Assembly: GCA_964420205.1 (NCBI GenBank)
Contig: CAYQSO010000002.1
Location: 7,765 to 71,764, forward strand
DNA from: an uncultured Candidatus Saccharibacteria bacterium
GTDB taxonomy: Bacteria > Patescibacteriota > Minisyncoccia > UBA6257 > JAGOQP01
Length of the DNA: 64,000 nucleotides
Direction of reading: 5' to 3'
Under the pieces are notes generated by a model. The model was not told where the DNA came from. It worked only from the letters and a program-made list of their open reading frames with translations, and did not search any database. Position numbers and translations under genes: made by a program. This document shows positions 862 to 42,644 of the stretch, in pieces (position 1 is the first letter of the stretch; each line of letters opens with the position of its first letter).

Positions 862-976
862 ATTAAACTACATTTCCTTTTAACTCATTACACACTTTAC
901 ACATTGTCTGGTAATTACCCATATAATTCTTAATTTGCACTTGTTCCATTTTTTTCCATTTTTTCTATTCCCTTCC

Positions 977-2020
977 CTAAAACACGTATTCTATTTCATC
1001 AAATTTATCATAAAGAGGTGGTGTAAAAGATTTCATCATATCTAATCTTACACTCACAGGAACAAATTTATTTTCTCTTTGTATATCTCTCTCTGTTATT
1101 ATATCATTACTTGTACAAAACACAATAGCTTTTTTGTAGTATGTATCGGGAACGTTACAAAGTACCTTATTCCTACTTTTAGAAGAAAGATTAGTTCTAT
1201 CTATTACTATATTATCATTATTCTTTAAAGATAACTGAACTCTTTCTGTAAACACACTATCTACTTTTTTGTGGTCTGCTTTTACCCACGCTTCATTGTA
1301 GTTACTTGTTCCACCCTCTTCTAAGACTATATCATCTCTAGAAATAATAGTATAGTTTTCTGTAAAATTTTCTTTCGCATAAGTTGATTTTCCACTACAC
1401 GGAAGACCTATTAACATGATAAATTCATTGTTACAATAATTCTTATCTTTTACAACAAAATATTTATTTAATCTATTAAATATATTATTGGCCTCTCCCA
1501 CAGATAAATACTGCGAAAAATTATTACTTACTTCAGTAAACCTACCATTAGAATCACAATAATAAAAATCAGCTAATGACCTAAGTAAATTTCTATTTCT
1601 ATTAAACTTCTCTTTTATCTTCTTTTCATTATTTTGGATATTTGGTAAATAAGAATGTAAACCAATAATTTCTAATATATACCTCTTACTTTCATTAGAT
1701 AAATGTAATTCGGGTTGATTAAGTATTTCAATAGCTTCAAAAAAACTTACCCCACTATGGCCGTAAAAACGTACTTTATTATCAGTCCTATCATTTCTAA
1801 CAAAACATTTCCCAAGGTCGTGTAAAAGAGCAGCTAATTGTAATCTCTCATCAGCAGAATAAAACTCAGCCATCTTACCTACTAATAAAGAATGAGTCCA
1901 CACATCACCTTCTAAATGATACGGATTTAAGTACTCACTAGAATAATGATGAGTACAACTCTTCATACTCTCTACTAAGTGCGGAAAGTTTTTATGTAAA
2001 AATTTAATATATTTATCCAT
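977..2020 (-). CDS. HD-domain phosphohydrolase fused to P-loop (polynucleotide-kinase-like) kinase
   Basis: N-terminal half has H..HD metal ligands (YHLEGDVWTHSLLV, LLHDLGK); C-terminal half has Walker A (IGLPCSGKST) and a Pnk-like kinase fold. Immediately upstream (in the transcription direction) of the RNA ligase. Confidence 0.55.
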   Translation of the reverse strand: MDKYIKFLHKNFPHLVESMKSCTHHYSSEYLNPYHLEGDVWTHSLLVGKMAEFYSADERLQLAALLHDLGKCFVRNDRTDNKVRFYGHSGVSFFEAIEILNQPELHLSNESKRYILEIIGLHSYLPNIQNNEKKIKEKFNRNRNLLRSLADFYYCDSNGRFTEVSNNFSQYLSVGEANNIFNRLNKYFVVKDKNYCNNEFIMLIGLPCSGKSTYAKENFTENYTIISRDDIVLEEGGTSNYNEAWVKADHKKVDSVFTERVQLSLKNNDNIVIDRTNLSSKSRNKVLCNVPDTYYKKAIVFCTSNDIITERDIQRENKFVPVSVRLDMMKSFTPPLYDKFDEIEYVF

Positions 2021-2856: not shown

Positions 2857-3033
2857 CTATACTCTTGAATATCTACTACACATTTCAAAACAAATATCTT
2901 CTTTATTATAAACTGGCTCATACATTTCAAAATTTTTACACTTATAAGCATACCCACACTTACCTTCCGGTAACGCCCTGCCCCTTTTACAGGTAAAACA
3001 GCACTTATTTTCTTCCTTTTTATATTTATACAT
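2857..3033 (-). CDS. hypothetical small Cys-rich protein (not in ORF track)
   Basis: Manual translation: MYKYKKEENKCCFTCKRGRALPEGKCGYAYKCKNFEMYEPVYNKEDICFEMCSRYSRV (58 aa, 8 Cys). It is abutted by the next minus ORF. Confidence 0.3.
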   Translation of the reverse strand: MYKYKKEENKCCFTCKRGRALPEGKCGYAYKCKNFEMYEPVYNKEDICFEMCSRYSRV

Positions 3034-3041
3034 TCTACTAC

Positions 3042-3380
3042 CTATAAGTACATAATTGCAAGATAATTTATTAAGAGATGTGCTGTATTGTCTCTAATGA
3101 TATTTATCCAAACTATCAACCAAACTGGTCTATCAGATTTATTACTATTAAAATAGTTTATTATATTATCTATATACTCACCAAATTTAATATGATCTAT
3201 TATAGCATGCGATAAACATATAACGAGCAAAGCTAATGAACTTTGTGTAATAAGTAAAAATGGTAAGATATATGTCGCAGCATGTTGTAATGCTAATCCG
3301 AAATTCTCTTTTTTACCAAGTGCCTGCCTATCTGTTTGTAGCCAATAGTCACCTATCAAATGAGCTATTAATTGCTCCAT
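3042..3380 (-). CDS. small integral membrane protein
   Basis: Three hydrophobic helices (YILPFLLITQSSLALLVICL, VWLIVWINII, LLINYLAIMYL); overlaps the QueC-like gene by 32 nt. Confidence 0.4.
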   Translation of the reverse strand: MEQLIAHLIGDYWLQTDRQALGKKENFGLALQHAATYILPFLLITQSSLALLVICLSHAIIDHIKFGEYIDNIINYFNSNKSDRPVWLIVWINIIRDNTAHLLINYLAIMYL

Positions 3381-4050
3381 CTCTTAATTCCTTTTCATAC
3401 TTTGCTAATTTATACGTTATACATGGGGTGCACTTCCCACACTCTATTATTTCTTTATTATCTAAAACAGGTTCTTCACACCACCAACAAAAATCTAAAA
3501 GACCTTCCTCTTCTAATTTATTTATTATCTCCAATTTCCTTTTAAGTGATAAAGGGAGCCTCCAAAGAGTACCTGAACACCCCACCATACGAAATGAATT
3601 ATTAATTATACTTTCTAATTCACTATAAGTATACCATATAGAATCATTATATATATAACCTAAATAAATACTGGTATTATCATCAATAAATGATAGTATA
3701 TTTGAAAACCAATAAAAAAATTGTAACCCTGAAGTAGTTCCTTGTTCTACCCAATTAATTTTAGGTAGTTTTAAATCTATTTTAACTTTAGCATAATTTA
3801 CATTATAACCTAAACTTTTTAAATACTTTTTAAACTTTTTTCTACTTTCTTCTTCTTTTTTTATCTTCTCTGATCTTAATCCCCAAAATTCCACAGAGAC
3901 ACAATTAATAGAATGCCCCTCTTTCTTACCATACTTCTTACAAAGTTCATACAATAATAAAGTAGAATCACACCCACCCGACCAAAGCAATAAGTGTTTT
4001 GTATGACCTGACTCAGGGTAATCTCCCAGATAGAAATAATTTTCTTCCAC
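3349..4050 (-). CDS. queC: QueC-like PP-loop ATPase (7-cyano-7-deazaguanine synthase family)
   Basis: PP-loop SGGxDS (LLLWSGGCDSTLLL) near the N-terminus and a QueC-type C-terminal zinc motif C..C...CGKCTPC (compare B. subtilis CGECPACHLR). 233 aa. Confidence 0.55.
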   Translation of the reverse strand: MEENYFYLGDYPESGHTKHLLLWSGGCDSTLLLYELCKKYGKKEGHSINCVSVEFWGLRSEKIKKEEESRKKFKKYLKSLGYNVNYAKVKIDLKLPKINWVEQGTTSGLQFFYWFSNILSFIDDNTSIYLGYIYNDSIWYTYSELESIINNSFRMVGCSGTLWRLPLSLKRKLEIINKLEEEGLLDFCWWCEEPVLDNKEIIECGKCTPCITYKLAKYEKELRDGAINSSFDR

Positions 4051-4110
4051 TACTTTCTCCTTTAAAACTATTAAACTAAATATATACCACTTATACTACT
4101 TTGTCAAGCA

Positions 4111-4145
4111 CAAATAAAAATCCCTTAGTAAAATTTTACTAAGGG
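4111..4145 (-). terminator. rho-independent terminator on minus strand
   Basis: Perfect palindrome cccttagtaaaa/ttttactaaggg (4122..4145), followed on the minus strand by ATTTTTATTTG. Confidence 0.45.
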
Positions 4146-4678
4146 AGATTAATTAGAAAGGATTAAAAATGAAAAACAAAAAATTAATAGTATAGGGTGG
4201 ATTCTGGTATACACACCAAGCTTTCACTACACAGTCATTCACCATTATTCCAGCATCTACCCAACTAATACTTGCAATTATTAATTGATAACAGTAGTAG
4301 AGATTTTCACTCTAAAATTTCACATCCAATACCATTTATTCTGTCTACGTAACTGTTTAAGAATGTGGCCTTTGCTACTTTAACCTCGTACAGAATCTTT
4401 TATTGAAGAAAATCTTCAATTAACCACAAGTACTTATATTTCCTTTGCAAGATATTTCAACCTTGTTCCAGATAACTTTCCTAAGATTTACGAGTCTGTT
4501 ATGGCTTATAGTTACTTACTACTTCCTTCGATTCGCTTTTGACAAAGCTATGAAGTCTATTCCAAGACTCTCTCCAGAATACCTTATGTTCTTGATCAAC
4601 ATATTCAGTCACCATACTATTAAATTTTCAAAGTTCAACTCAACTATATAAATAGCTTACCATGTTATTTAAATAAAA

Positions 4679-5572
4679 TCAACTACTTTTTAAAATATAT
4701 TTCCTAACATCTACTAACAATTTTTCTAAATTTACATGTTCATAGATTCCTGAAGTAGAAAGAGCATTAATTTCTACTACTGCTTCGCACAGGTCACTGC
4801 CACTTGCCCAATAACAAACATCTATAGTGAAGCAATCTAAATCTATATTATGTATAATTTCTTCTACGTTTTCAAAAGTAGATTTAAATGGCTTTGGATC
4901 TATTGCAACAGTATTGTTTACATATAATGAATAAGTAGAAATCTTCTTACCTACTATATAAAACCTGTATTCATACATTATTTCTTTTTCAGTAGATAAA
5001 ACAAGAATTGTATCTTTACTTACTCTAAGGTTATTTAATTTCATCTTCATATCAAATGGACCAAAAGCAACAAATGATTCAAAAATCTTATCGCCTCTAT
5101 CTGGTTTTACAAAAATCCCATTTTTATGTTTCTTAGTATGGGATAGAATACGATCATAATCATGATAAAACTGCTCATAAAAATCCCCCATTAAAGTCCA
5201 CGCTGGTACAAATAAACAATCTTTATTTAATAAAAATTGTTTAAGAATATTGTAATACCTGCTTACGTTATAAAACTCATCAAAACCATAAAATAAAAAA
5301 TTATACCTCTTACCAATACTAGGATAATTTTCAAAATCTATATGTTCTGTAAGCTTTCTAATATTTTGAATACTTGTAAAACCTGTATACAACTGATCTT
5401 TTTTAATGCTAGGGAATTGGTATCTTAAATTATTTGGGCTACTAAAACAAGTTTGCATATCATAAACTTGTCTACTTTTATCACCAAAAGATTTTATTAT
5501 TTGTTTAACTTCCTTAAACTGTTCTTTAGATGAAAATATTATATCTTGTAAAAACCATGTAATCTTAGACAT
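4679..5572 (-). CDS. ATP-grasp family protein
   Basis: C-terminal CEAVVEINALSTSG resembles the ATP-grasp E-x-N/Mg motif; GIFVKPDRGDKIFESF resembles the ATP-grasp lysine loop. 297 aa. Confidence 0.4.
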   Translation of the reverse strand: MSKITWFLQDIIFSSKEQFKEVKQIIKSFGDKSRQVYDMQTCFSSPNNLRYQFPSIKKDQLYTGFTSIQNIRKLTEHIDFENYPSIGKRYNFLFYGFDEFYNVSRYYNILKQFLLNKDCLFVPAWTLMGDFYEQFYHDYDRILSHTKKHKNGIFVKPDRGDKIFESFVAFGPFDMKMKLNNLRVSKDTILVLSTEKEIMYEYRFYIVGKKISTYSLYVNNTVAIDPKPFKSTFENVEEIIHNIDLDCFTIDVCYWASGSDLCEAVVEINALSTSGIYEHVNLEKLLVDVRKYILKSS

Positions 5573-5891
5573 TACTATTTTCCACTATTTAATATTACTA
5601 TAAATTAAAACACAGGTTAAAAGACTTGAACTCTTACTAAACGGGTTGGAGCCGTTTGTGCTACCGATTACACCAAACCTGCAAAATAAAACAGTAGTTT
5701 TTCATCAATACGGAACTATAAAACTACCAAAAATAGTCAGCGATTCTTTAACTAGTATTATTCGCTTAGGAACTTTGTTCAAAGTCTTAACAACCTTTAT
5801 CTTGTTAAGCACTTATCTAGAACAGGGAGAAACACTACCGTCTATTAATATTATAATAGCAAATTAAATATACTATGTCAAGCCTAAATTT

Positions 5892-6539
5892 TTAAAATTC
5901 TATCCCTTTTCTCGCAGGAATGGTTATTAACGTTGCCCCGCAATTAGGACAATAATTACTCCTATATTCAAAACTTCTTTTACAGACCTCACAATGCTTA
6001 TCGAAATAATGTTTAACACATCTAATGTCTGAAAATAAATCTGATATGTCTTTTATTTTATCATATAAAGAGTCTGACCATATCCTACCCGTTAAAACAA
6101 GCTCAAGATTAGATGGTTTTTCTCTTATAAAATCAAAAAACTGTTTCTGAGTAAGTAACCCAAGATTTAAAGCAGGTAATACTTCATCTAAAATCAAGAT
6201 ATTGAACGGGTGCTCATTATTTTCAGTGAGGGTTAGTTTTTCTACCATCAACGACCACGTATTTTGAACGAGCTCTTTATCTTCAGAAGTTTTATTATGT
6301 TCCATTACAATTCTATTAGAGTTATGAGACTGGATTATTGTTATTTTATCTTGGAAAAGACCACACGTCTTTATTTCACCATACTCTGTGTTGTCATCCC
6401 CTTTTAAAAATTGAACAATAAAAACTTTCCAATTTTTAGCTATTGACCGAAACGCAAGTCCAAAAGCACTAGTAGTCTTCCCTTTCCCTGAACCCGTATA
6501 GGTTTGTATGAACCCGTGATTTTTTAATTCATGTCCCAA
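5892..6539 (-). CDS. cobA: ATP:cob(I)alamin adenosyltransferase (CobA/BtuR/CobO family) with C-terminal zinc-ribbon extension
   Basis: TYTGSGKGKTTSAFGLAFRSI...VFIVQFLKG matches the CobA P-loop (TGNGKGKTTAAFG...VVQFIKG). ILILDEV and LVLTGR...VKHYFD match the remaining CobA blocks. An extra CEVCKRSF...CPNCG lies at the C-terminus. Confidence 0.8.
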   Translation of the reverse strand: MGHELKNHGFIQTYTGSGKGKTTSAFGLAFRSIAKNWKVFIVQFLKGDDNTEYGEIKTCGLFQDKITIIQSHNSNRIVMEHNKTSEDKELVQNTWSLMVEKLTLTENNEHPFNILILDEVLPALNLGLLTQKQFFDFIREKPSNLELVLTGRIWSDSLYDKIKDISDLFSDIRCVKHYFDKHCEVCKRSFEYRSNYCPNCGATLITIPARKGIEF

Positions 6540-6556
6540 AATCCATACCTACCTTT

Positions 6557-9500
6557 CTAACGTATGGGGCATACCCCATTTTCACAATCACTACCTAAAT
6601 CATCATCTAAATTATATTGTTTTTCATATTTAGCTATCAATTCGGGTGTTATTTTACCAAATTGTTTATTTAACTTATTATATTCTTCTTCTGTAATTGC
6701 TTCATAAGGGGCTAAAGGGTATTTAGCATCATACAAAGGTAAAAAAGATATTCCAACAAAATCATCCCAATTCTCATAAACCCAATCTATTACACCTGCC
6801 CATTCATTATCTCGAACAGTAACCGTGATAGATGTGTTATGGTCTGTGTAATTTCTCATGAACATTTTATAAGTTTCTAATTGTTCTATTGCACTAATAT
6901 CATATTTATTTTTACCTTCGGGTGACTTTACATAAAAATCTATTACATTAGTATCACAAGTTTCAGGGTCCTGTCCTACTTCAGGTGATATATTATATCC
7001 CAATTCTTCTGCTACTTTTAATAAAGGGTCCCCTGAATTAATTCGCACTCTTCTAATATAGTAAGGGGAGTGTGAATGATGAACACCCGGAGATATAGTG
7101 GGAAGTAAACTAAGTGTTCCAGAAGGTTTAATTGTAGTGACTAACTTAGGGGTATTTCTTCCTAGGGAATTTGCTATTTTAGTTGCTTCCGTACGTGCTG
7201 TTTCTCTTAGGAGTTTTAAAATAGATACTTGGTTCTCTTCCGACTTATCGTAGAGTAAATTCACTGCGTCTTGCCACCCACTTAAAGCTACCCCTAGTAA
7301 CATATGTTCTTCTTGGACTTTTTTCCATTCTGGTAACTCAATATTTACACAAGCCATTCTATACGAAGCACGTGTAAACGTCCTAACAGCATTTAATATT
7401 TCTTCATTAAGCTCCCCATCTTTTACAAAAGATTTTACATTAATCTCTACTAAATTACAAAATCCTTTAGAAGGTAAAAGTATCTCACAATTATGAACCA
7501 TAAAACCATTTACTATGCCCCAATGAGATAAAGGTTCTTCGAAATCAAAAACATCATGCTCCCCTATATGAGAAATATCTTCTATCGTAACAGTATTATA
7601 GTCACGTATTGAATCATTTTTCTTACAGTAAGACTGAAAAATCAAGCATTTACCTTTTAAATCCTTTGCTTTGCAATTTGAACCATCCTCAAGCATAAAA
7701 ATATGGTCTTCTGTACATTTTATAATTCTATTATTAGACATTTTTAACCTAATACAAGGTTTACGACCAGTAAACCAAACTTTGCCTTGTGATATATTTC
7801 CATCAGCATTTATTATATCTATTTGCTTCTCATTCAGTTCTTTAAAAGTTTTATAACCTTTTGATGTCAATAATTTCATATCCCCCGTAAAACAACAGGG
7901 ATTTAGCCCTTCCATAGTAGGGAGTCTACGTTGAGCCTCTTGTTTATTAATAAAGCCAGGTTCACCTGTAGTTTTTATACTGTTAAATATTTCTACCAAC
8001 TCTTCTTTCGACGGTCTTTTATTGAATAGAATACTATTGTTGCTCGATACCCTATGTGTTTTGTTTGGGTCAGATACCCACGCACCATCTTCATTTTGAT
8101 AGTAAATACCTTGTTTAGCCAGTCTCACGTCTTCATCGTCTTTATCAAATAAACAAACTAATGCAGTCCTTCTTACACCCCCAACCTGAACTGCGCATCC
8201 TACTAAATTACATATATCTAAAATGTCTATAGTTTTTAAACTACCATTAGACCTACTTACAATACCTATAATTTTCTCAAACAATATTTTAAGGGGGACA
8301 TGCCCACTTGCATAACCACCAAAAGTTTTTAAGGGGGCGCCTTCAGGTCTAACATTATCGAAGTCTACTAATATAGTAGATAATAGAGGGTTCTCTAAAC
8401 ATTTGAACAAGTACCTTAAGGCACCTACCCAACCCTCCTTAGAATCCCCTACAACAATAGTAGCGACGTTACCTGTGGTTTGTAATGTACTAAACTCTTC
8501 TTTATCTATTTTTTCAGAATATTCTTTAGATAATATTCTAATACTTGTATTTAAATTAGAAAAAGCACTAATATTTTCTATTACATCTAAAAAACCAACC
8601 CCACAACCTAATAAGAGGAGATAAAATAACTCACAGATATCTTCTGTATTATCTATTTTTGTAAAAGAACAATTTTTAGTCAATATATTATTCGCCAGAG
8701 TAAATGATTCTGTTTCTGGTTCAACAACACACCAAACATCTTCTATAATATCTGTTTCTTCTACACCTTTCACAACCCACGAAGGTTCAAAACTTGTTTC
8801 TTTTACACTTGACTTATGTTTACTATTCAAAAAGAAATCATCTGGTACATGTTTTGAATATAAATTCAATCTATAATTCGGAGCGTATTCTCCAGTATAC
8901 GGTGAAAGTTCTCTATTTAATTCAACTTTTCCACAATCAATACCTAATATAGAAAATATACTTTTAATATGGTCTAATGTGTTTTTATTAGAATTACTTA
9001 TTGAGATATTACTCTTGTAATAAGACCCATCTGTGGCAAATAAGCCCATCACAAACCCCATTAAATATTCCACATTAGAGTTCAGAGATGGGAGATTTTT
9101 CCATGTATTTGGTAGGCCATATATCACTTTCTGGTTATATTTTCCAGCGGTACATTGAGACCCTGTTGTAAAATATAATGCAAGTTCCTGCTTATTATCT
9201 ACTAAATGAACCCTACAATGGTTCATTTTTTTATTATATGTCCCATCTCCAAAAACCATACCATGTTGTATCCCAACAGAACACGGAACTATATTAGTTT
9301 GTTCATATCTTCTTTTCTCTCTCAAAATATCGCCATTTTTTAACTCATTAGTAGTCTTAACAATAAATTTTTTCTCAGACTTGTACCTTTTTACATACCA
9401 CCTATGATTTTCTGTAGTGTAAATAATATCTTCTCTTTTACCTCTACCAACAATCAACTTTACCAATTTAGACTTTCCGAAATTTCTAATAGTAGCAGTT

Positions 9501-9928
9501 TTCCACCCACCAGTAGAGGATAATATATCTACGTTATCACCATCACTAAAATCATTAAATGACTTTATTCCTTGCTTTGTTATAAATTCTGTATCTGATT
9601 TAAAACAGTTAAAATTACTAGAGGCATATTTTTTAGAGCTCTCTGTTCCACCTACCCATAATGTTCTGCCGCTTAAAAATCCTTTAAGGTTAAATATCGT
9701 ATCAAATAATTGCTCTGCTTCTCTTATAGAAACTCCATGAACTAACGAACAATTATATTCTACTGCTCTCCTAACTGTCTCCCACCAATACTCTCTTCTA
9801 TTTTGTTCTGGTAAATATCTTGAATAAGTTCTATAATAAACAAACTCTCCCAATGAAGTCATCGGTGGATTCACATCTTTATATTTACTTATAAATTCTT
9901 CACTTAATAACATTAATTTATGCCTCAC
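6557..9928 (-). CDS. nrdJ: adenosylcobalamin-dependent class II ribonucleotide reductase precursor, interrupted by two inteins
   Basis: N-terminal EFVYYRTYSRYLPEQNRREYWWETVRR is the class II RNR signature; NPC...EI thiyl-radical site; 1123 aa. About 450 aa is accounted for by two Hint/intein insertions. Confidence 0.85.
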   Translation of the reverse strand: MRHKLMLLSEEFISKYKDVNPPMTSLGEFVYYRTYSRYLPEQNRREYWWETVRRAVEYNCSLVHGVSIREAEQLFDTIFNLKGFLSGRTLWVGGTESSKKYASSNFNCFKSDTEFITKQGIKSFNDFSDGDNVDILSSTGGWKTATIRNFGKSKLVKLIVGRGKREDIIYTTENHRWYVKRYKSEKKFIVKTTNELKNGDILREKRRYEQTNIVPCSVGIQHGMVFGDGTYNKKMNHCRVHLVDNKQELALYFTTGSQCTAGKYNQKVIYGLPNTWKNLPSLNSNVEYLMGFVMGLFATDGSYYKSNISISNSNKNTLDHIKSIFSILGIDCGKVELNRELSPYTGEYAPNYRLNLYSKHVPDDFFLNSKHKSSVKETSFEPSWVVKGVEETDIIEDVWCVVEPETESFTLANNILTKNCSFTKIDNTEDICELFYLLLLGCGVGFLDVIENISAFSNLNTSIRILSKEYSEKIDKEEFSTLQTTGNVATIVVGDSKEGWVGALRYLFKCLENPLLSTILVDFDNVRPEGAPLKTFGGYASGHVPLKILFEKIIGIVSRSNGSLKTIDILDICNLVGCAVQVGGVRRTALVCLFDKDDEDVRLAKQGIYYQNEDGAWVSDPNKTHRVSSNNSILFNKRPSKEELVEIFNSIKTTGEPGFINKQEAQRRLPTMEGLNPCCFTGDMKLLTSKGYKTFKELNEKQIDIINADGNISQGKVWFTGRKPCIRLKMSNNRIIKCTEDHIFMLEDGSNCKAKDLKGKCLIFQSYCKKNDSIRDYNTVTIEDISHIGEHDVFDFEEPLSHWGIVNGFMVHNCEILLPSKGFCNLVEINVKSFVKDGELNEEILNAVRTFTRASYRMACVNIELPEWKKVQEEHMLLGVALSGWQDAVNLLYDKSEENQVSILKLLRETARTEATKIANSLGRNTPKLVTTIKPSGTLSLLPTISPGVHHSHSPYYIRRVRINSGDPLLKVAEELGYNISPEVGQDPETCDTNVIDFYVKSPEGKNKYDISAIEQLETYKMFMRNYTDHNTSITVTVRDNEWAGVIDWVYENWDDFVGISFLPLYDAKYPLAPYEAITEEEYNKLNKQFGKITPELIAKYEKQYNLDDDLGSDCENGVCPIR
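7490..7894 (-). mobile_element. intein 2 in nrdJ (about 135-aa mini-intein at the NPC active site)
   Basis: NPC|CFTGDMKLL...GFMVHN|CEILLP: N-terminal Cys, C-terminal HN, +1 Cys, and no endonuclease domain. Coordinates by residue counting (aa 679..813). Confidence 0.6.
8672..9607 (-). mobile_element. intein 1 in nrdJ (about 312 aa, LAGLIDADG homing-endonuclease type)
   Basis: Starts with Cys right after NFN (CFKSDTEF...) and ends ...ILTKN before the CSF extein. LAGLIDADG-like blocks HGMVFGDGTY and LMGFVMGLFATDGSY. Coordinates come from residue counting (aa 108..419). Confidence 0.65.
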
Positions 9929-12625: not shown

Positions 12626-13960
12626 TCATTCTAAAACAATTACATTTGAAGTTACTAATTCGCTTTTTCTTGCTTCATTGTACTCTCTTTTGTTGTTGCT
12701 TGCAACAACTACTTGAGTTTGTTTTAACACTCCACAAGCTTTACTAACTCTAACAGAATTAAAGTTAGTTCCCGACAAGCCATCGGTACATGTATTCCTT
12801 ACTTCATTAAGTAGGATATAATCTTTACAGTTCTTGAGATTAACTGCTGCATTGTAGTCTCTTTGGTGCTCTGCACCACAATTACTACATTTCCAGTTTC
12901 TATCTTTTAATTTTAGTTCTTTATTCTTCTCTCCACAGCTACTACATAACTTACTACTTGGAAAGAATTTATTTACTTCTCTTACTTCTATATTATGTTT
13001 TGTACACTTCTGTACAAGAACTTGTTTAAAATAGTAAGGTTTATTTTGAAGAATAGTTTTAGAAAGATGTTTGTTCCTAACCATTCCTTTAATATTTAAG
13101 TTTTCAACTGTAACATATCTAGGTTTCCCCTTAACTATGTTATCTATACATTTATTAGTATAAGAGTTTCTTATTTGTTCTAACCTGTAGTACACTTTTT
13201 CTACTCTTAGTTTATTTTTAATATAATTGTTACTTACTTTATCTCTCTTTTCTTTCTTCTTAGCTTCGTACTTTCTACTTAAAGCTCTCTGTTCTCTTCT
13301 TAATTTCTTTTCTAACTTTTTAACTCTAGTAGTTTTATTAATGTTTTTGTATTCTTCTTTGTTAGAACATGTTAAGAAAGTACTTATTCCCCAATCAATA
13401 CCAATACCTTCATTACAATTCTTATTATCTTTACTACTCTCTTCATCTGTTATAACAGAGATGAAATATCTATTAGATCTCTTAGTTATTACTCCACTTA
13501 TTATTTTATTGTTTCCTGTAGGGAGGTATCCTTTCTCTTTCAGAGAAACCTCTCCGAACATAGGAATTTTAATTTTATGCCTAGAACATCTTATAGGTCT
13601 GTTTGCCTCTACTCTAACAAAATAAACTCCTGTCTTGTCTTTAGAAGCTTTTTTAAATTTAGGAAATCCTTTCTTTGATTTAAATGCTTTTTGGTAAGTT
13701 GAATTACAATTATCTATAGTCTTTCTAAGAGCTTTACTCCCTGCTTCTTTCAACCAATGTTTATCTTCGTTCTCTTTTAAATAAACATTATTAAACCATT
13801 TAGAGAACTCGTAGTTATTAAGATATTTTTCTCCTGCGGAGTAACGTTCTTTATTAACAGAAATAAAAAGATTCCAGACAAATCTACATGCAGAAATTGT
13901 AAGCTTGTAAAGCTTCTCCTGTTCTTTATTTAGTTTTACTTCTGTCTTGTAAGCTTTCAT
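12626..13960 (-). CDS. tnpB: TnpB (IS200/IS605-family OrfB; OMEGA RNA-guided RuvC nuclease), copy 1
   Basis: Canonical MKAYKTEVKLNKEQEKL N-terminus, C-terminal zinc finger CSSCGEKN...CSNCGAEHQRDYNAAVNL (RuvC-III). The track ORF extends to 14086, but Met43 at 13958..13960 is the likely start, judged by alignment to copy 2. Confidence 0.85.
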   Translation of the reverse strand: MKAYKTEVKLNKEQEKLYKLTISACRFVWNLFISVNKERYSAGEKYLNNYEFSKWFNNVYLKENEDKHWLKEAGSKALRKTIDNCNSTYQKAFKSKKGFPKFKKASKDKTGVYFVRVEANRPIRCSRHKIKIPMFGEVSLKEKGYLPTGNNKIISGVITKRSNRYFISVITDEESSKDNKNCNEGIGIDWGISTFLTCSNKEEYKNINKTTRVKKLEKKLRREQRALSRKYEAKKKEKRDKVSNNYIKNKLRVEKVYYRLEQIRNSYTNKCIDNIVKGKPRYVTVENLNIKGMVRNKHLSKTILQNKPYYFKQVLVQKCTKHNIEVREVNKFFPSSKLCSSCGEKNKELKLKDRNWKCSNCGAEHQRDYNAAVNLKNCKDYILLNEVRNTCTDGLSGTNFNSVRVSKACGVLKQTQVVVASNNKREYNEARKSELVTSNVIVLE

Positions 13961-13993
13961 TGATAAAAAGAAAAGTTCTAAGAAATTATTTTG

Positions 13994-14057
13994 TAAGCAG
14001 ATACAATTCTTCCTAGAACTAAAATTAATATAAATCTTATTTAATTGTATCTGCTTA
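13994..14057. repeat. perfect 15-bp inverted repeat (taagcagatacaatt / aattgtatctgctta) with 34-nt spacer in the presumed IS left end
   Basis: Read directly from sequence (13994..14008 and 14043..14057); lies between the real tnpB start and the over-extended track start. Confidence 0.7.
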
Positions 14058-14175
14058 ATATTATAATTTAACTTAAAATTTTTCATTTAGATTTCCCTGT
14101 AAAGGTATTAAAAATGAATATGTTTTACATATATTTGATTATGTTATGGGAGACTGTTCATTATCTTCTCTCCTC

Positions 14176-38268: not shown

Positions 38269-38353
38269 ATTTATTTCTCCTTAAATAAAAATAGTTTACT
38301 ATTTATTAGAATAATAAACTACTTTTTATCTTGTGTCAATACGTAGATTTATT

Positions 38354-41300
38354 TTAGAGCGGTTTCGGTATTAAAGTAGTACGTGATTCATCATCTACCC
38401 ATTTAAAATCGAATATTTGTCCAAAACGATACCCCAGTCCAATTGTAGCTTTAATAGGCAAAGGCCAATCTGGTAAGCTAAAATACATTATATCTTCTAT
38501 TAACCTAGTGTATTCTACTATTTTATCTAAATCAACATAAAGGTTCACTTCGTCATGTATTGTCGAAAGAAAAGCACACTCTTTTTCTTTTTCGGATATA
38601 CTAAATATTTTCTGATACATCTTCTTAAGAACTATACGCATAATATCCCCCGCACTTCCCTGGATTATGTGGCTGCTGACTCTTCTCTCAGCAGCAGATA
38701 TCATATTATTTGACTCTCTTTCACCTTTCCTAGGGTCTTCTGCTTCTCTTTCTATCCTCTCAGCCATATTTACATATGACCCGAAGCGTCTGGGCCTCCC
38801 ACAGAACGTAAATGTAGTTCCGGCATTATTCCACATCTTATTTATTTCATTTTGTCTCCATTGCATAGCCCCAAAAAAAGCTTCACAATAGGCATCATAA
38901 AGAGCTGTTGCGTGTTCTAACGGGATTCCAGAATTCTTAGATATGGAATCAGAATGACCACTATAATTTATAGCAAAATTCACAGCCTTTGCTATTTTTC
39001 GTAGCCCCTTGTTATAATTTTCTCTACCCCATATAGCGTACGCTGTCGCAGTATGTGGATCAATACCTTCCCTGAAATTTGATAACTTTACACTATCTTT
39101 ACTGTAATTAGTAAGGAGAACGTCTTCCTGTGAACTGTAATCCACACTCAAAATAATCTTTTTCTTACTATTAACCTTTTTAAATGATGGAACTACTACA
39201 CAATTTCTAATATTAAAATTAGGGGAGAACCCTTCTACTAAATAACAGTCTTCTGAGTCAGTGTGGTTTTTAATGTCTTCATCAGACATTAAATCAAAAC
39301 ACCAACCTAATATATTACCCTCTTTCTCAGATTTGTATGCTTTATAAATCGCTCCTGACGGTTTACTAAGATTCTGCGCATTAAGATCTATATAATAGGG
39401 GTTCTTAGTCTTCTTATCACTCTTACTCCCATTACCACTTGCAAATCTCCCTGAAGCGGTCCCAAAAAGTTTATATCTCATCCTACACTCATCTACCTTA
39501 GTCAGTTTATCAATGTAACTATTGATAGCCTTATTCATAGTAGAGTACTTCTGTATCTTCTTTAAAATACTTAACTTTTCATTTTCTTTTTTAAGCATTA
39601 TTTTTAATATTTTTAAAAAATATTTTCTATTGAGAATTCTACTTCCTTTTTTAAGCGGAACTAGTTTCTTATTTTTATTCTTTCTTTTCGCTCTGCTCAA
39701 TACTCTTATAGTATTGTTATTCAACTGCATTACTTGGAAATAGTCACTCCCATGTGCTTCTAGTATTTTATATAAATAAAACATATCTACGTGTTCTCTT
39801 ATATGTAATTCTGAAGCACAAAATCCTTTTGTAAAATAACCTTCTTCATTCTTTTCTAATTTTTCTATAATACCTCGTAAATCTGTTAAATTCTTAGAAA
39901 ATATTCTTGTACCATCTTTTTTACCAAAAGAAATCTGATCTGTATCTGTCCTTGCCCCAGTATCTATATTCTTAGATGCCATAGCATTTTTAAACTCTTT
40001 AGAAGAGGTACTAAGGTTGAATATTCCTATATCAAAATAATTATATATTTCCTCCTTAAGCTGAGTTATTACTTCGATAGCTTTTTCTTTATATTTTTTA
40101 GCTTCTTCTTTATCTATATAAAGTTTAGTATGTCCATAATAATCAATCCAATACCTTATAAGAGTGTTGTCTGATTTTATAACGTCAAATTTTTTACCGT
40201 TAAACTCTACTATATTGGGGTAAGTACTTATTAGTTTTTTAACTTTCGGATATAAATAGTAAAAAAGTGCCAAGCAGCAACATGAGTCTGCACAATTACC
40301 CGAAACCAAGACTTTACCATTTCTTCTAGTTATTAAAGTGTGATTTGGTACTTCTGCACAATAAACCACCCCACTATATGGAACAATTTCTCTCTGGTAT
40401 TTCTTGTATCTAACACTTTTCTGTCTTTGTGTGTACACACTATAAATTTGGTGCACATTTTCTCTTTTTATTACACGTCCTCTAATAACACAGTCTTTTT
40501 TAGGTGGTGCTTTTAAAGTTAATATACTAGTCCTACCACCCAACATTAATAGCTCTTGTAACTGATTAGCCATTTTGATAGATGTAGTATAAAAAACCCA
40601 CGCTGAGTCAGTTTTTCTAGACCCATCACAATAATTAAAATATTTTAGAAACTCATTTATACAGTACGAATCCATTTTAAAAATTTCAGGTGGAATATAC
40701 TTTTTCTGAGCCTTACCTTCCATATAAGGTTTTATCCAATTATAAAACTTTTTATTATAACAAACCCAGCTATTCCCTTTTTCTCTTTTGTTAGGGCGAA
40801 ACCCCATATTAGTTTCCATTAACATATTTTCTAACTCTTTTTTGAATTTATCGCTACAAACAGCCAGCCCTATGTGATAACAAACTTGCTTGTCGCCTCT
40901 TTGAACAATCCAACCATCTGCCAACAACGCACCTGTTAATCTGGCTAATTGTACAGGGGTTAAATTAACATTCTTACTAAAATGAAAAGAATCCTTCCCA
41001 CTACCTTTCTTCTCTGTGGGAGCTTTATAACCGCTTTCTTCAACTAAAAGATCTTTTGCCTGTTTGAATACCCATTCTTTATGTTGTGCTCGCTTAACTA
41101 GCATATTATGGTTGGGGGTAACACAAAAATCAAGATGTTTACTTTTATAAGAAATCATCTCTCCTTTATATTCATACGCATATAACCTTAGAGGACGCTG
41201 GTACTCTAATTCATCTTTTTCCACATTTACAGTAGCTAAAAGGTCTTCTCCATTATAATCTTTCCACATTACCCAACCATTTTCAGTCAATACTTCAGTC

Positions 41301-42319
41301 TGATCATCGTGGCATGCATAAATAACTGTGCTCCTATCGTAGGGGCATACATACTTGAATTCACCCGGAAATTCTAACATAGTACGTCCTAGATACAATT
41401 TAGCACTTAACTTAAGTCCTGCCATTTTTGACTCCGCATCAAAAAGATACGGAAGTATCATAGAGTCAAAAAAGTTAACTTTTTCAATAGAATAACCTTC
41501 TTTCTTATACATATTAAGGTCAAATTCAGCATTATGGATTACTACTAACTTTGCACTTGTTAAAGCTTTATATAAAATATCAAGGGACTTTTTTGCACTT
41601 CTCTCATTTTCTTCTTCTGTTAAAACATAACTAGAAACTTCCATTTCAGATAAATGCTTTTCAAAGTCTCCTATCATACAGTCTATACTACCAAGTTTAG
41701 CTTCTACTACTTCTTTTTCTAAATCTTTAGAATTTTCAAGAAAGTTTTCTTTATCTTGTTTTAACCCATCTATTAATTTTTGCGTCTCTTCTCTTTGTCT
41801 CTGTAATTCTAATTGCTCCCTTACTTCTTTGCTACATATATTTCCATTATGTAATGAATACTCATACGTCTTTACCGTAGTCTGACTTACTCTTCCTGTT
41901 TTAGTATATACTACATTTCCTTCTTCATCTAATTTAGGAACTTTTTCTGAACCCACTTCTTTTTTTCGCATATGTCTCAAAGGGCAATAAATCCCCGAAT
42001 TGTCGTCCAGTGAAAGAGAGAACCCTACAATGTAATCACCACCTTCTTCTCGAGGTGAACTGTTCAGTCCAGTAGTTTCAGTGTCAAACCCGATTATCTT
42101 ATCTTTACAAAGTTCTACGAATTCTTCCAACTCTTCTAAAGTATTAACAAGTTTATAGTCCCCTAAATAAATAAGATTCCCTTCCTCATCGTATTTATGA
42201 AACTTATTATCAAACTCTCTATAACCATGTACAGGTATATATTTGTACAACGTTTTACTGCTTTTTTTCTTTTGTTCTACCTTTTGTTGAACATATTTTT
42301 TCTTATAATCTTTTGTCAT
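38354..42319 (-). CDS. family A DNA polymerase (3'-5' exo plus polymerase domains) precursor containing an intein
   Basis: Exo I IGFDTETTGL; polymerase motif A LSVDYSSQE, motif B RKIAKAVNFAINYS, motif C LSTIHDEVN. The likely true start is MTKDYKK, 12 codons inside the track ORF (which begins at 42355). Confidence 0.85.
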   Translation of the reverse strand: MTKDYKKKYVQQKVEQKKKSSKTLYKYIPVHGYREFDNKFHKYDEEGNLIYLGDYKLVNTLEELEEFVELCKDKIIGFDTETTGLNSSPREEGGDYIVGFSLSLDDNSGIYCPLRHMRKKEVGSEKVPKLDEEGNVVYTKTGRVSQTTVKTYEYSLHNGNICSKEVREQLELQRQREETQKLIDGLKQDKENFLENSKDLEKEVVEAKLGSIDCMIGDFEKHLSEMEVSSYVLTEEENERSAKKSLDILYKALTSAKLVVIHNAEFDLNMYKKEGYSIEKVNFFDSMILPYLFDAESKMAGLKLSAKLYLGRTMLEFPGEFKYVCPYDRSTVIYACHDDQTEVLTENGWVMWKDYNGEDLLATVNVEKDELEYQRPLRLYAYEYKGEMISYKSKHLDFCVTPNHNMLVKRAQHKEWVFKQAKDLLVEESGYKAPTEKKGSGKDSFHFSKNVNLTPVQLARLTGALLADGWIVQRGDKQVCYHIGLAVCSDKFKKELENMLMETNMGFRPNKREKGNSWVCYNKKFYNWIKPYMEGKAQKKYIPPEIFKMDSYCINEFLKYFNYCDGSRKTDSAWVFYTTSIKMANQLQELLMLGGRTSILTLKAPPKKDCVIRGRVIKRENVHQIYSVYTQRQKSVRYKKYQREIVPYSGVVYCAEVPNHTLITRRNGKVLVSGNCADSCCCLALFYYLYPKVKKLISTYPNIVEFNGKKFDVIKSDNTLIRYWIDYYGHTKLYIDKEEAKKYKEKAIEVITQLKEEIYNYFDIGIFNLSTSSKEFKNAMASKNIDTGARTDTDQISFGKKDGTRIFSKNLTDLRGIIEKLEKNEEGYFTKGFCASELHIREHVDMFYLYKILEAHGSDYFQVMQLNNNTIRVLSRAKRKNKNKKLVPLKKGSRILNRKYFLKILKIMLKKENEKLSILKKIQKYSTMNKAINSYIDKLTKVDECRMRYKLFGTASGRFASGNGSKSDKKTKNPYYIDLNAQNLSKPSGAIYKAYKSEKEGNILGWCFDLMSDEDIKNHTDSEDCYLVEGFSPNFNIRNCVVVPSFKKVNSKKKIILSVDYSSQEDVLLTNYSKDSVKLSNFREGIDPHTATAYAIWGRENYNKGLRKIAKAVNFAINYSGHSDSISKNSGIPLEHATALYDAYCEAFFGAMQWRQNEINKMWNNAGTTFTFCGRPRRFGSYVNMAERIEREAEDPRKGERESNNMISAAERRVSSHIIQGSAGDIMRIVLKKMYQKIFSISEKEKECAFLSTIHDEVNLYVDLDKIVEYTRLIEDIMYFSLPDWPLPIKATIGLGYRFGQIFDFKWVDDESRTTLIPKPL
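40295..41314 (-). mobile_element. intein in DNA polymerase (about 340 aa, LAGLIDADG type) inserted in the Exo III motif (YA|C..D)
   Basis: VIYA|CHDDQTEVLTENGW...LARLTGALLADGW...FLKYFNYCDGS...VPNHTLITRRNGKVLVSGN|CADSCCCLALFYYL; the extein junction restores the Y-x-x-x-D exo motif. Coordinates by residue counting (aa 348..687). Confidence 0.6.
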
Positions 42320-42644
42320 TATTAAAATTAACTCCTGTACTAGATAAACCAACATTAGTGAAATTAAAATCTTTGTACTTCCACCAATCTTTTTTCTTCA
42401 TCATCTTTTTAACTTTTCTTGGGTACTTATCCCACCTACAGTACTTCCCGATACCTAATATGTAATTAAATATTATTAATTTTACTCTATTTTCTATATT
42501 AGTTTGAATTTCTCCCACACATTCGCCATAGGGCTCTCTTACAGCAGAAGTAGCAGTATCTCTTGACTCACATAAATATTGAGACGATATTCCTGTTGCC
42601 ATAACAATGTCTTGTCTTAATTTATATAATCTCTCTTCTATCAT
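42303..42644 (-). CDS. hypothetical protein
   Basis: 113-aa ORF upstream of the polymerase. Confidence 0.3.
   Translation of the reverse strand: MIEERLYKLRQDIVMATGISSQYLCESRDTATSAVREPYGECVGEIQTNIENRVKLIIFNYILGIGKYCRWDKYPRKVKKMMKKKDWWKYKDFNFTNVGLSSTGVNFNNDKRL

Follow-up and report, generated by a model that had tools for sequence, protein, structure and literature searches.

The window, the 64-kb stretch of contig analyzed here, forms a module encoded on one strand, in that every one of its 35 ORFs of at least 200 aa lies on the minus strand. Its GC content is ~30%, and it contains genes of a large phage for replication and nucleotide metabolism, among them those for a DNA polymerase, a DnaB-like helicase, a UvsX-like recombinase, a ligase, a class II ribonucleotide reductase (RNR), and a CobO-type adenosyltransferase. 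About 80 minus-strand ORFs give the window a coding fraction of ~0.92, and the gaps between genes are short, with a median of 10 nt and a 90th percentile of 160 nt. The largest true gap, at 628 nt, holds the non-coding tract that is our subject; the second largest, at 319 nt, has a tRNA gene inside it. The stretch at 171–976 was rejected as a second ORF-free gap, being occupied by an RNA-ligase-like ORF that is cut by the window edge, and codon periodicity there is strong (p = 1.5e-5). The features to which we refer below are these:

6557–9928, minus strand: RNR gene, class II and B12-dependent
5892–6539, minus strand: CobO-type adenosyltransferase gene
5853..5881, minus strand: promoter-like site TTGACA-17-TATTAT with extended TG, matching the consensus at 11/12 positions (consensus match only)
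5610..5683, minus strand: tRNA-Trp (CCA) gene, in a predicted unit shared with the R2K gene
4679..5572, minus strand: complete R2K-clade ATP-grasp gene, 297 aa (PF18299, PF14243), 64% identical at 99% coverage to the 301-aa protein P0002
4650..4688, minus strand: degenerate dyad or hairpin, AAGTAGTTGA-N19-TAAGCTATTT, spanning the R2K stop codon
4155..4678, minus strand: non-coding tract of 524 nt, from the R2K stop codon to the terminator region
4111..4146, minus strand: intrinsic terminator with an 11-bp perfect stem, a 4-nt loop, and a U-run (-15 kcal/mol, z -5.35)
4079..4107, minus strand: promoter-like site TTGACA-17-TATATT ahead of the QueC-like and DUF3307 genes, matching at 11/12 positions (consensus match only)
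3349..4050, minus strand: divergent gene for a QueC-like PP-loop protein of 233 aa, opening the next unit
3042–3380, minus strand: DUF3307 gene, overlapping the QueC-like gene
977–2020, minus strand: HD plus AAA_33 kinase gene
from ~860, minus strand: RNA-ligase-like ORF with a KYHGTSA motif, continuing past the window start
38289–38324, minus strand: near-perfect dyad, AAGTAGTTTA-N16-TAAACTATTT, just after the DNA polymerase gene

A sequence-only reading of this DNA had described the tract, from the R2K stop codon (4679–4681) to the terminator, as lacking minus-strand ORFs that reach 60 aa, and we confirmed this, finding that the longest minus-strand ORFs within it encode 38 aa (4499–4615) and 30 aa (4153–4245). 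All three minus frames contain TAA, TAG, and TGA, so reassigning one stop codon cannot rescue an ORF; stop-codon recoding (TGA as Trp, or TAG or TAA reassigned) was rejected on these grounds. The independent gene caller behind the ENA copy of the contig calls no gene in the tract, and the sequence of the tract recurs base for base, at 100% identity, in a separate Logan assembly (L003), indicating that the tract is not an assembly artifact. Its base composition equals the sense-strand average of the genome. The impression that it is GC-richer than its surroundings does not hold, as its GC content of 0.311 compares with 0.306 for the coding DNA of the window; the tract is richer only than the spacers, exceeding the pooled other intergenic DNA (0.261) by ~2.6 sd. 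Neither k-mers in general nor GGA are enriched in the tract (8 GGA observed versus ~8 expected, by our own arithmetic from base composition), for which reason a CsrA-type sponge was rejected, and the recurrent "AAAGTAGT" promoter motif shows no enrichment.

At the 3' end, the strong terminator hairpin noted in the sequence-only reading proved real: a perfect 11-bp stem (4146..4121) containing 4 G-C pairs closes a 4-nt loop and is followed by UUUUUAUUU, and none of 200 shuffles was as stable. The hairpin thus has the marks of an intrinsic terminator, namely a GC-containing stem-loop, a U-run right after it, and stability above chance. A scan of 3000–7000 turned up no further terminator-like site, and in particular none from the R2K stop codon to 4146. 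The tract had been placed inside an operon, and this fails, as the promoter-like site at 4107..4079, a ribosome-binding site (RBS), and the start of the next gene come directly after the terminator. With a promoter-like site in this position, the tract is the last part of its unit and sits at an operon boundary; the operon picture is corrected accordingly, the tract closing one unit before a new promoter-like site follows.

At the other end, the promoter-like site at 5881..5853 is, from its match to the consensus, the likely start of a unit made up of tRNA-Trp, the R2K gene, and the tract. The resulting order (promoter-like site, tRNA-Trp, R2K gene, tract, sole terminator) fits a long 3' UTR, and we infer that the tract is transcribed, in which case it would form such a 3' UTR. 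A leader of ~170 nt (5684–5852) separates the promoter-like site from tRNA-Trp; Rfam gave no match to this leader at E<=5. The ENA annotation puts a 69-aa gene in the leader region, on the strand opposite tRNA-Trp and R2K, which is probably spurious.

Neither flanking gene appears to have been cut. The R2K protein aligns over 99% of its length to P0002 and has the same endpoint, and the PP-loop motif of the QueC-like protein lies near its N-terminus. The QueC-like gene comes with a promoter-like site, an RBS, and a start of its own, leaving a 5' UTR of ~20 nt by our own count from the hexamers. Because the R2K protein is full length and the QueC-like gene is equipped in this way, no gene is interrupted, and a self-splicing intron was excluded since no gene is split. 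The idea that the tract is a leader of the QueC-like operon, acting as riboswitch or attenuator, was rejected as well: the 11/12 promoter-like site intervenes, and there is no match to preQ1 or any other aptamer. The position of that site after the terminator also means that the terminator is not the sole gate of the QueC-like operon. The QueC-like protein itself is very divergent, reaching only the Pfam QueC threshold, and its best relatives are 30–35% identical and come from tiny contigs.

The proposal that the tract is a decayed gene found no support in six-frame protein searches, codon periodicity, or codon usage. The six-frame translations matched nothing in Pfam or PHROG at E<=1; joined as a single query, the six frames had no match at E<=10 among 5.8 billion proteins (searched as clusters), and tblastn with the proteins that neighbor the homologues found nothing in the tract. 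The codon-phase chi-square of the tract is 5.2 (p = 0.51), and that of its neighbors is 43 for R2K, 24 for the QueC-like gene, and 19 for CobO; sliding-window periodicity reaches the lowest value of the neighborhood within the tract. We also computed a frameshift-tolerant dynamic-programming score that follows the best codon-usage path. On this measure the tract does not rise above the null (z = 0.14), compared with 7–21 for real genes, and an R2K gene decayed in simulation by 10%–30% substitutions plus four indels still gives a path z of ~2–3. In the absence of periodicity, codon usage, and protein matches, any coding ancestry of the tract would have to be old or foreign.

Comparison with relatives is constrained by the phage lineage, which is very sparsely sampled. 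The sole relative of R2K (64% amino-acid and 70% nucleotide identity) was reached through the protein database and lies on a 1.4-kb Logan contig (L005, from SRR19603271), on which nucleotide similarity ends at the end of the R2K gene. L005 continues with a sigma-70-like gene, 173 aa or longer (922–1440, plus strand), that overlaps the R2K stop codon and whose regions 2 and 4 were recognized by eye. This different content after R2K suggests that the slot downstream of R2K is a variable junction. The sigma-70-like protein has no detectable homologue in the window (best tblastn E ~1). The tract, at 533 nt (4146–4678), is about the same size as the sigma-70-like gene; their alignment is no better than random, and no remnant of that gene came up in tblastn. 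At four-fold sites, the R2K genes of the window and of L005 still share 50% identity, saturation being at ~36%. Since synonymous sites are thus unsaturated, an orthologue decaying in place should remain recognizable, and in-place decay of a sigma-70-like orthologue was rejected given the random alignment. The sequence-only reading had named a lack of conservation in related genomes as grounds for refutation; the one available relative lacks the tract, which weighs against a conserved RNA, if thinly at n = 1.

Other searches extended this picture. Neither the R2K nor the QueC-like protein has relatives in IMG/VR; CobO matched one 190-kb contig, without synteny; and three distant relatives of the QueC-like protein in the protein database have ordinary genes upstream, across short gaps. 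For the tract itself, DNA similarity searches of the GenBank phage collection in near and distant modes gave nothing, nor did degenerate back-translated scans with its stop-free stretches in viral, metagenome, and genome collections, or exact 18-mer and 20-mer scans of IMG/VR. At the sensitivity used, the tract has no homologue in GenBank phages, IMG/VR, JGI metagenomes, or GTDB genomes.

A structured RNA, a riboswitch, and an intron had also been put forward, and these remain unsupported by Rfam matches, minus-strand folding, or a split gene. We ran cmscan with all 4227 families of Rfam 15, at gathering scores over the whole window and at E<=10 with permissive filters on 3950–4800; the families include riboswitches, T-box, group I/II introns, ROOL, GOLLD, OLE, HEARO, 6S, Y RNA, ribozymes, and RAGATH-18. 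At gathering scores, the only matches in the window are tRNA-Trp and RAGATH-18, both outside the tract. At E<=10, 3950–4800 gave chance-level matches only, the best being NsiR1, whose 25.4 bits fall short of its gathering score of 39 and whose match covers the terminator hairpin alone. No tRNA remnant or tmRNA was found in the tract. On the minus strand, the folding energy of the whole tract shows no gain over dinucleotide shuffles (z of -0.20, +0.82, and +1.18); 120-nt windows range from -1.3 to +1.3, the terminator excepted, and the domain 4628–4179, closed by a 15-bp long-range stem, has a z of -0.45. Pairing of the tract to the start regions of 76 genes gave a best energy within the null (z ~-1.4). 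The plus, or antisense, strand of the tract reaches a z of -2.3 to -2.4, compared with -0.11 +/- 1.15 in 12 control windows, with a centroid near the minimum free energy (MFE) structure and the lowest z among 13 plus-strand windows. This signal is marginal, lying ~1.9 sd from the controls after several tests, and neither a promoter nor a terminator accompanies it.

We also looked at the tract as DNA. The near-perfect dyad at 38289–38324 overlaps the -10 hexamer of a strong promoter-like site, TTGACA-17-TATTAT, leading to a ~72-aa gene, and from this arrangement it looks like an operator. Its sole other copy in the window is the degenerate one in the first 40 nt of the tract, which scores 39.2 bits, compared with a maximum of 38.3 among 100 Markov-simulated tracts; this copy has a weaker stem and has lost the hexamers that would match -35 and -10. 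The tract was also compared, as a possible paralogue, with the small gene that follows the dyad at 38.3 kb, and the idea was discarded because the two have no similarity. The tract also contains an inverted repeat complementary at 14/15 positions (4179–4193 and 4614–4628). The 15-mer is not enriched in the window (11 matches versus 7.2 expected), no copies of the repeat were found in other collections, and on reading the sequence we saw no target-site duplication flanking it. A MITE or other non-autonomous mobile element was accordingly rejected, there being no duplication and no further copies beyond chance. The tract has no iterons, tandem arrays, or direct-repeat families, only two-copy direct repeats at chance level, and thus lacks the iterons of an iteron-type replication origin.

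Our preferred reading makes the tract an ordinary untranslated tail or a leftover spacer. Under this reading, some 0.53 kb of non-coding RNA would form the untranslated 3' tail of a short unit of tRNA-Trp and R2K, ending at the terminator at 4146..4111; the tract itself would be what erosion has left of a former expression cassette or of a recombination joint, at a mosaic junction between gene modules; and the terminator would be its only working part, insulating the next promoter. We put the whole proposition, in which eroded leftovers at a mosaic junction make up an untranslated 3' tail whose sequence has little or no specific function, at somewhat less than an even chance. In its favor are the failure of every coding test, the lack of any mark of a discrete RNA element, the variable slot after R2K, and the lack of relatives of the tract in the collections searched. 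A degenerate promoter-associated dyad at the 5' end and a terminator at the 3' end resemble the shell of a promoter-gene-terminator cassette, which is suggestive and not proof, and the coding-like GC content, above that of the spacers, is as expected of former coding sequence. On this view the tract would derive from such a cassette and be under no selection. Several observations count against the leftover reading: with a median gap of 10 nt, such compact phage genomes usually purge useless DNA, so that 0.5 kb is unexpected; young junk should betray its source, and the tract betrays none, in codon-usage path or protein match; the tract is not a sigma-70-like orthologue decayed in place; and folding of the plus strand is somewhat more stable than that of shuffles. 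Should the ordinary reading be correct, the tract would show that even a conspicuous gap in so compact a phage genome may lack any recognizable element.

Both halves of the preferred reading have counterparts in known systems. Long bacterial 3' UTRs that end at the intrinsic terminator of an operon include those of icaR in Staphylococcus aureus and hilD in Salmonella, which have shown roles in regulatory pairing or turnover and are conserved among strains. Like these, the tract comprises several hundred untranslated nucleotides from a stop codon to the only terminator, on the sense strand and in an AT-rich genome; unlike these, it has no above-chance pairing to translation-initiation regions and no homologue, and its transcription is deduced from the signals around it. 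Tailed-phage genomes, in turn, contain mosaic junctions, "moron"-type cassettes, and gene remnants. The tract resembles mosaic junctions and moron cassettes in lying at a boundary where L005 carries a sigma-70-like gene, framed by a degenerate dyad and a terminator. A typical phage gene remnant, however, retains protein similarity or codon periodicity; the tract has neither, so its descent from a gene is something we infer.

The same facts can be turned toward function, since a tract that lacks marks of coding ancestry yet is kept among spacers with a 10-nt median matches what one would expect of a functional RNA or DNA site not yet described. It could be a lineage-specific non-coding RNA of an undescribed kind, either a regulatory RNA embedded in or derived from the minus-strand 3' UTR and sharing its terminator or a plus-strand antisense RNA. 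This would account for why a window that is 92% coding retains so large a non-coding gap, its largest, without a trace of coding ancestry, and a GC content above that of other spacers, the strong terminator as a boundary, and the plus-strand fold (its z, its centroid, and its rank as lowest of 13) all agree with it. The strand that alone has promoter and terminator signals, however, folds at shuffle level and belongs to no Rfam family; neither strand has a promoter-like site placed for an independent RNA; complementarity to translation-initiation regions never exceeds the null; the plus-strand z stands only ~1.9 sd from controls after several tests; and the tract is missing from the equivalent slot of its only relative and from every collection searched. 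On balance we consider such an RNA doubtful, though a serious contender. In a more specific form, a ~0.5-kb lineage-restricted RNA outside any described family would be the tail of the tRNA-Trp/ATP-grasp transcript or an antisense RNA, kept for phage-host conflict or for regulating the adjacent RNA-repair and deazaguanine-like genes; we judge this unlikely. A described class that our searches missed is harder still to credit. ROOL and GOLLD often adjoin phage tRNA genes, and bacterial queC is controlled by preQ1 riboswitches; the tract lies near a phage tRNA gene and upstream of a QueC-like gene, and its 3' terminator could act as an expression platform. Like ROOL (RF03087) and GOLLD (RF01998), it is ~0.5 kb long in a phage genome with a tRNA gene nearby; unlike them, it has no covariance-model match at E<=10, no excess folding of the transcribed strand, and no conservation. 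For a QueC-like operon riboswitch or T-box, a group I or II intron, a ROOL/GOLLD-type RNA, or a TnpB/IscB guide RNA alike, cmscan with permissive filters gave only chance-level matches; an independent promoter-like site stands between the terminator and the QueC-like gene, no gene is split, and RAGATH-18 occurs only at the TnpB gene, 8 kb away. That the tract belongs to one of these classes is barely conceivable.

A role at the DNA level, as a replication origin, an unwinding region, or a platform for a regulator, would suit a window that is a replication and nucleotide-metabolism module. The degenerate dyad at the 5' end is akin to the promoter-overlapping one, the tract holds the 14/15 inverted repeat, and its Watson-Crick helices yield the same stems on both strands. 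Set against this are the lack of iterons, tandem repeats, and direct-repeat families; the unenriched 15-mer, given that such an inverted repeat is expected ~0.4 times per 800 AT-rich bases by a rough estimate; the lack of an internal promoter-like site for R-loop priming; and the fact that the GC-skew trend is unchanged and the tract is no more AT-rich than the genome. We regard a DNA-level element as improbable. Unrecognized small protein genes, such as the 38-aa or the 30-aa ORF, seem more remote: the 30-aa ORF ends 7 nt before the terminator stem with a hydrophobic tail (MVNDCVVKAWCVYQNPPYTINFLFFIFNPF), and the local codon LLR reaches ~0.25 over 30 codons near 4290, but neither ORF has a Shine-Dalgarno sequence, there is no periodicity, the path score does not exceed the null, searches of 5.8 billion proteins and of translated collections returned no homologue, and the two ORFs jointly span only ~200 of the 524 nt. 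Indeed, no small ORF in the tract is preceded by a Shine-Dalgarno sequence, and the neighboring genes have clear ones, such as AAAGGAG. That the tract encodes such proteins is very improbable.

Several other features of the window were noted. The RNA-ligase-like ORF at its start and the HD/AAA_33 kinase gene (977–2020) resemble a tRNA/RNA-repair pair. The RNR, at 1123 aa, has intein-like inserts, with faint Pfam Intein_splicing and LAGLIDADG matches and C...HNC-type boundaries in the translation, and the CobO-type corrinoid adenosyltransferase encoded downstream of it has a C-terminal zinc ribbon. A TnpB-type gene (OrfB_IS605/Cas12f-like TNB, 486 aa) lies at 12626–14086 on the minus strand. 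The RAGATH-18 match (12667–12738, minus strand; 64.7 bits, E 1.4e-10) overlaps its 3' end, the usual position of a guide RNA, and together the two are the mark of an IS200/IS605-type element within the phage replication module. Finally, in the DNA polymerase ORF (38354–42355, minus strand; 1333 aa), residues ~345–715 match PHROG families annotated as thymidylate synthase and as PhoH-like and not polymerase, which suggests, from the protein match, an inserted or fused domain in the middle part of the enzyme.
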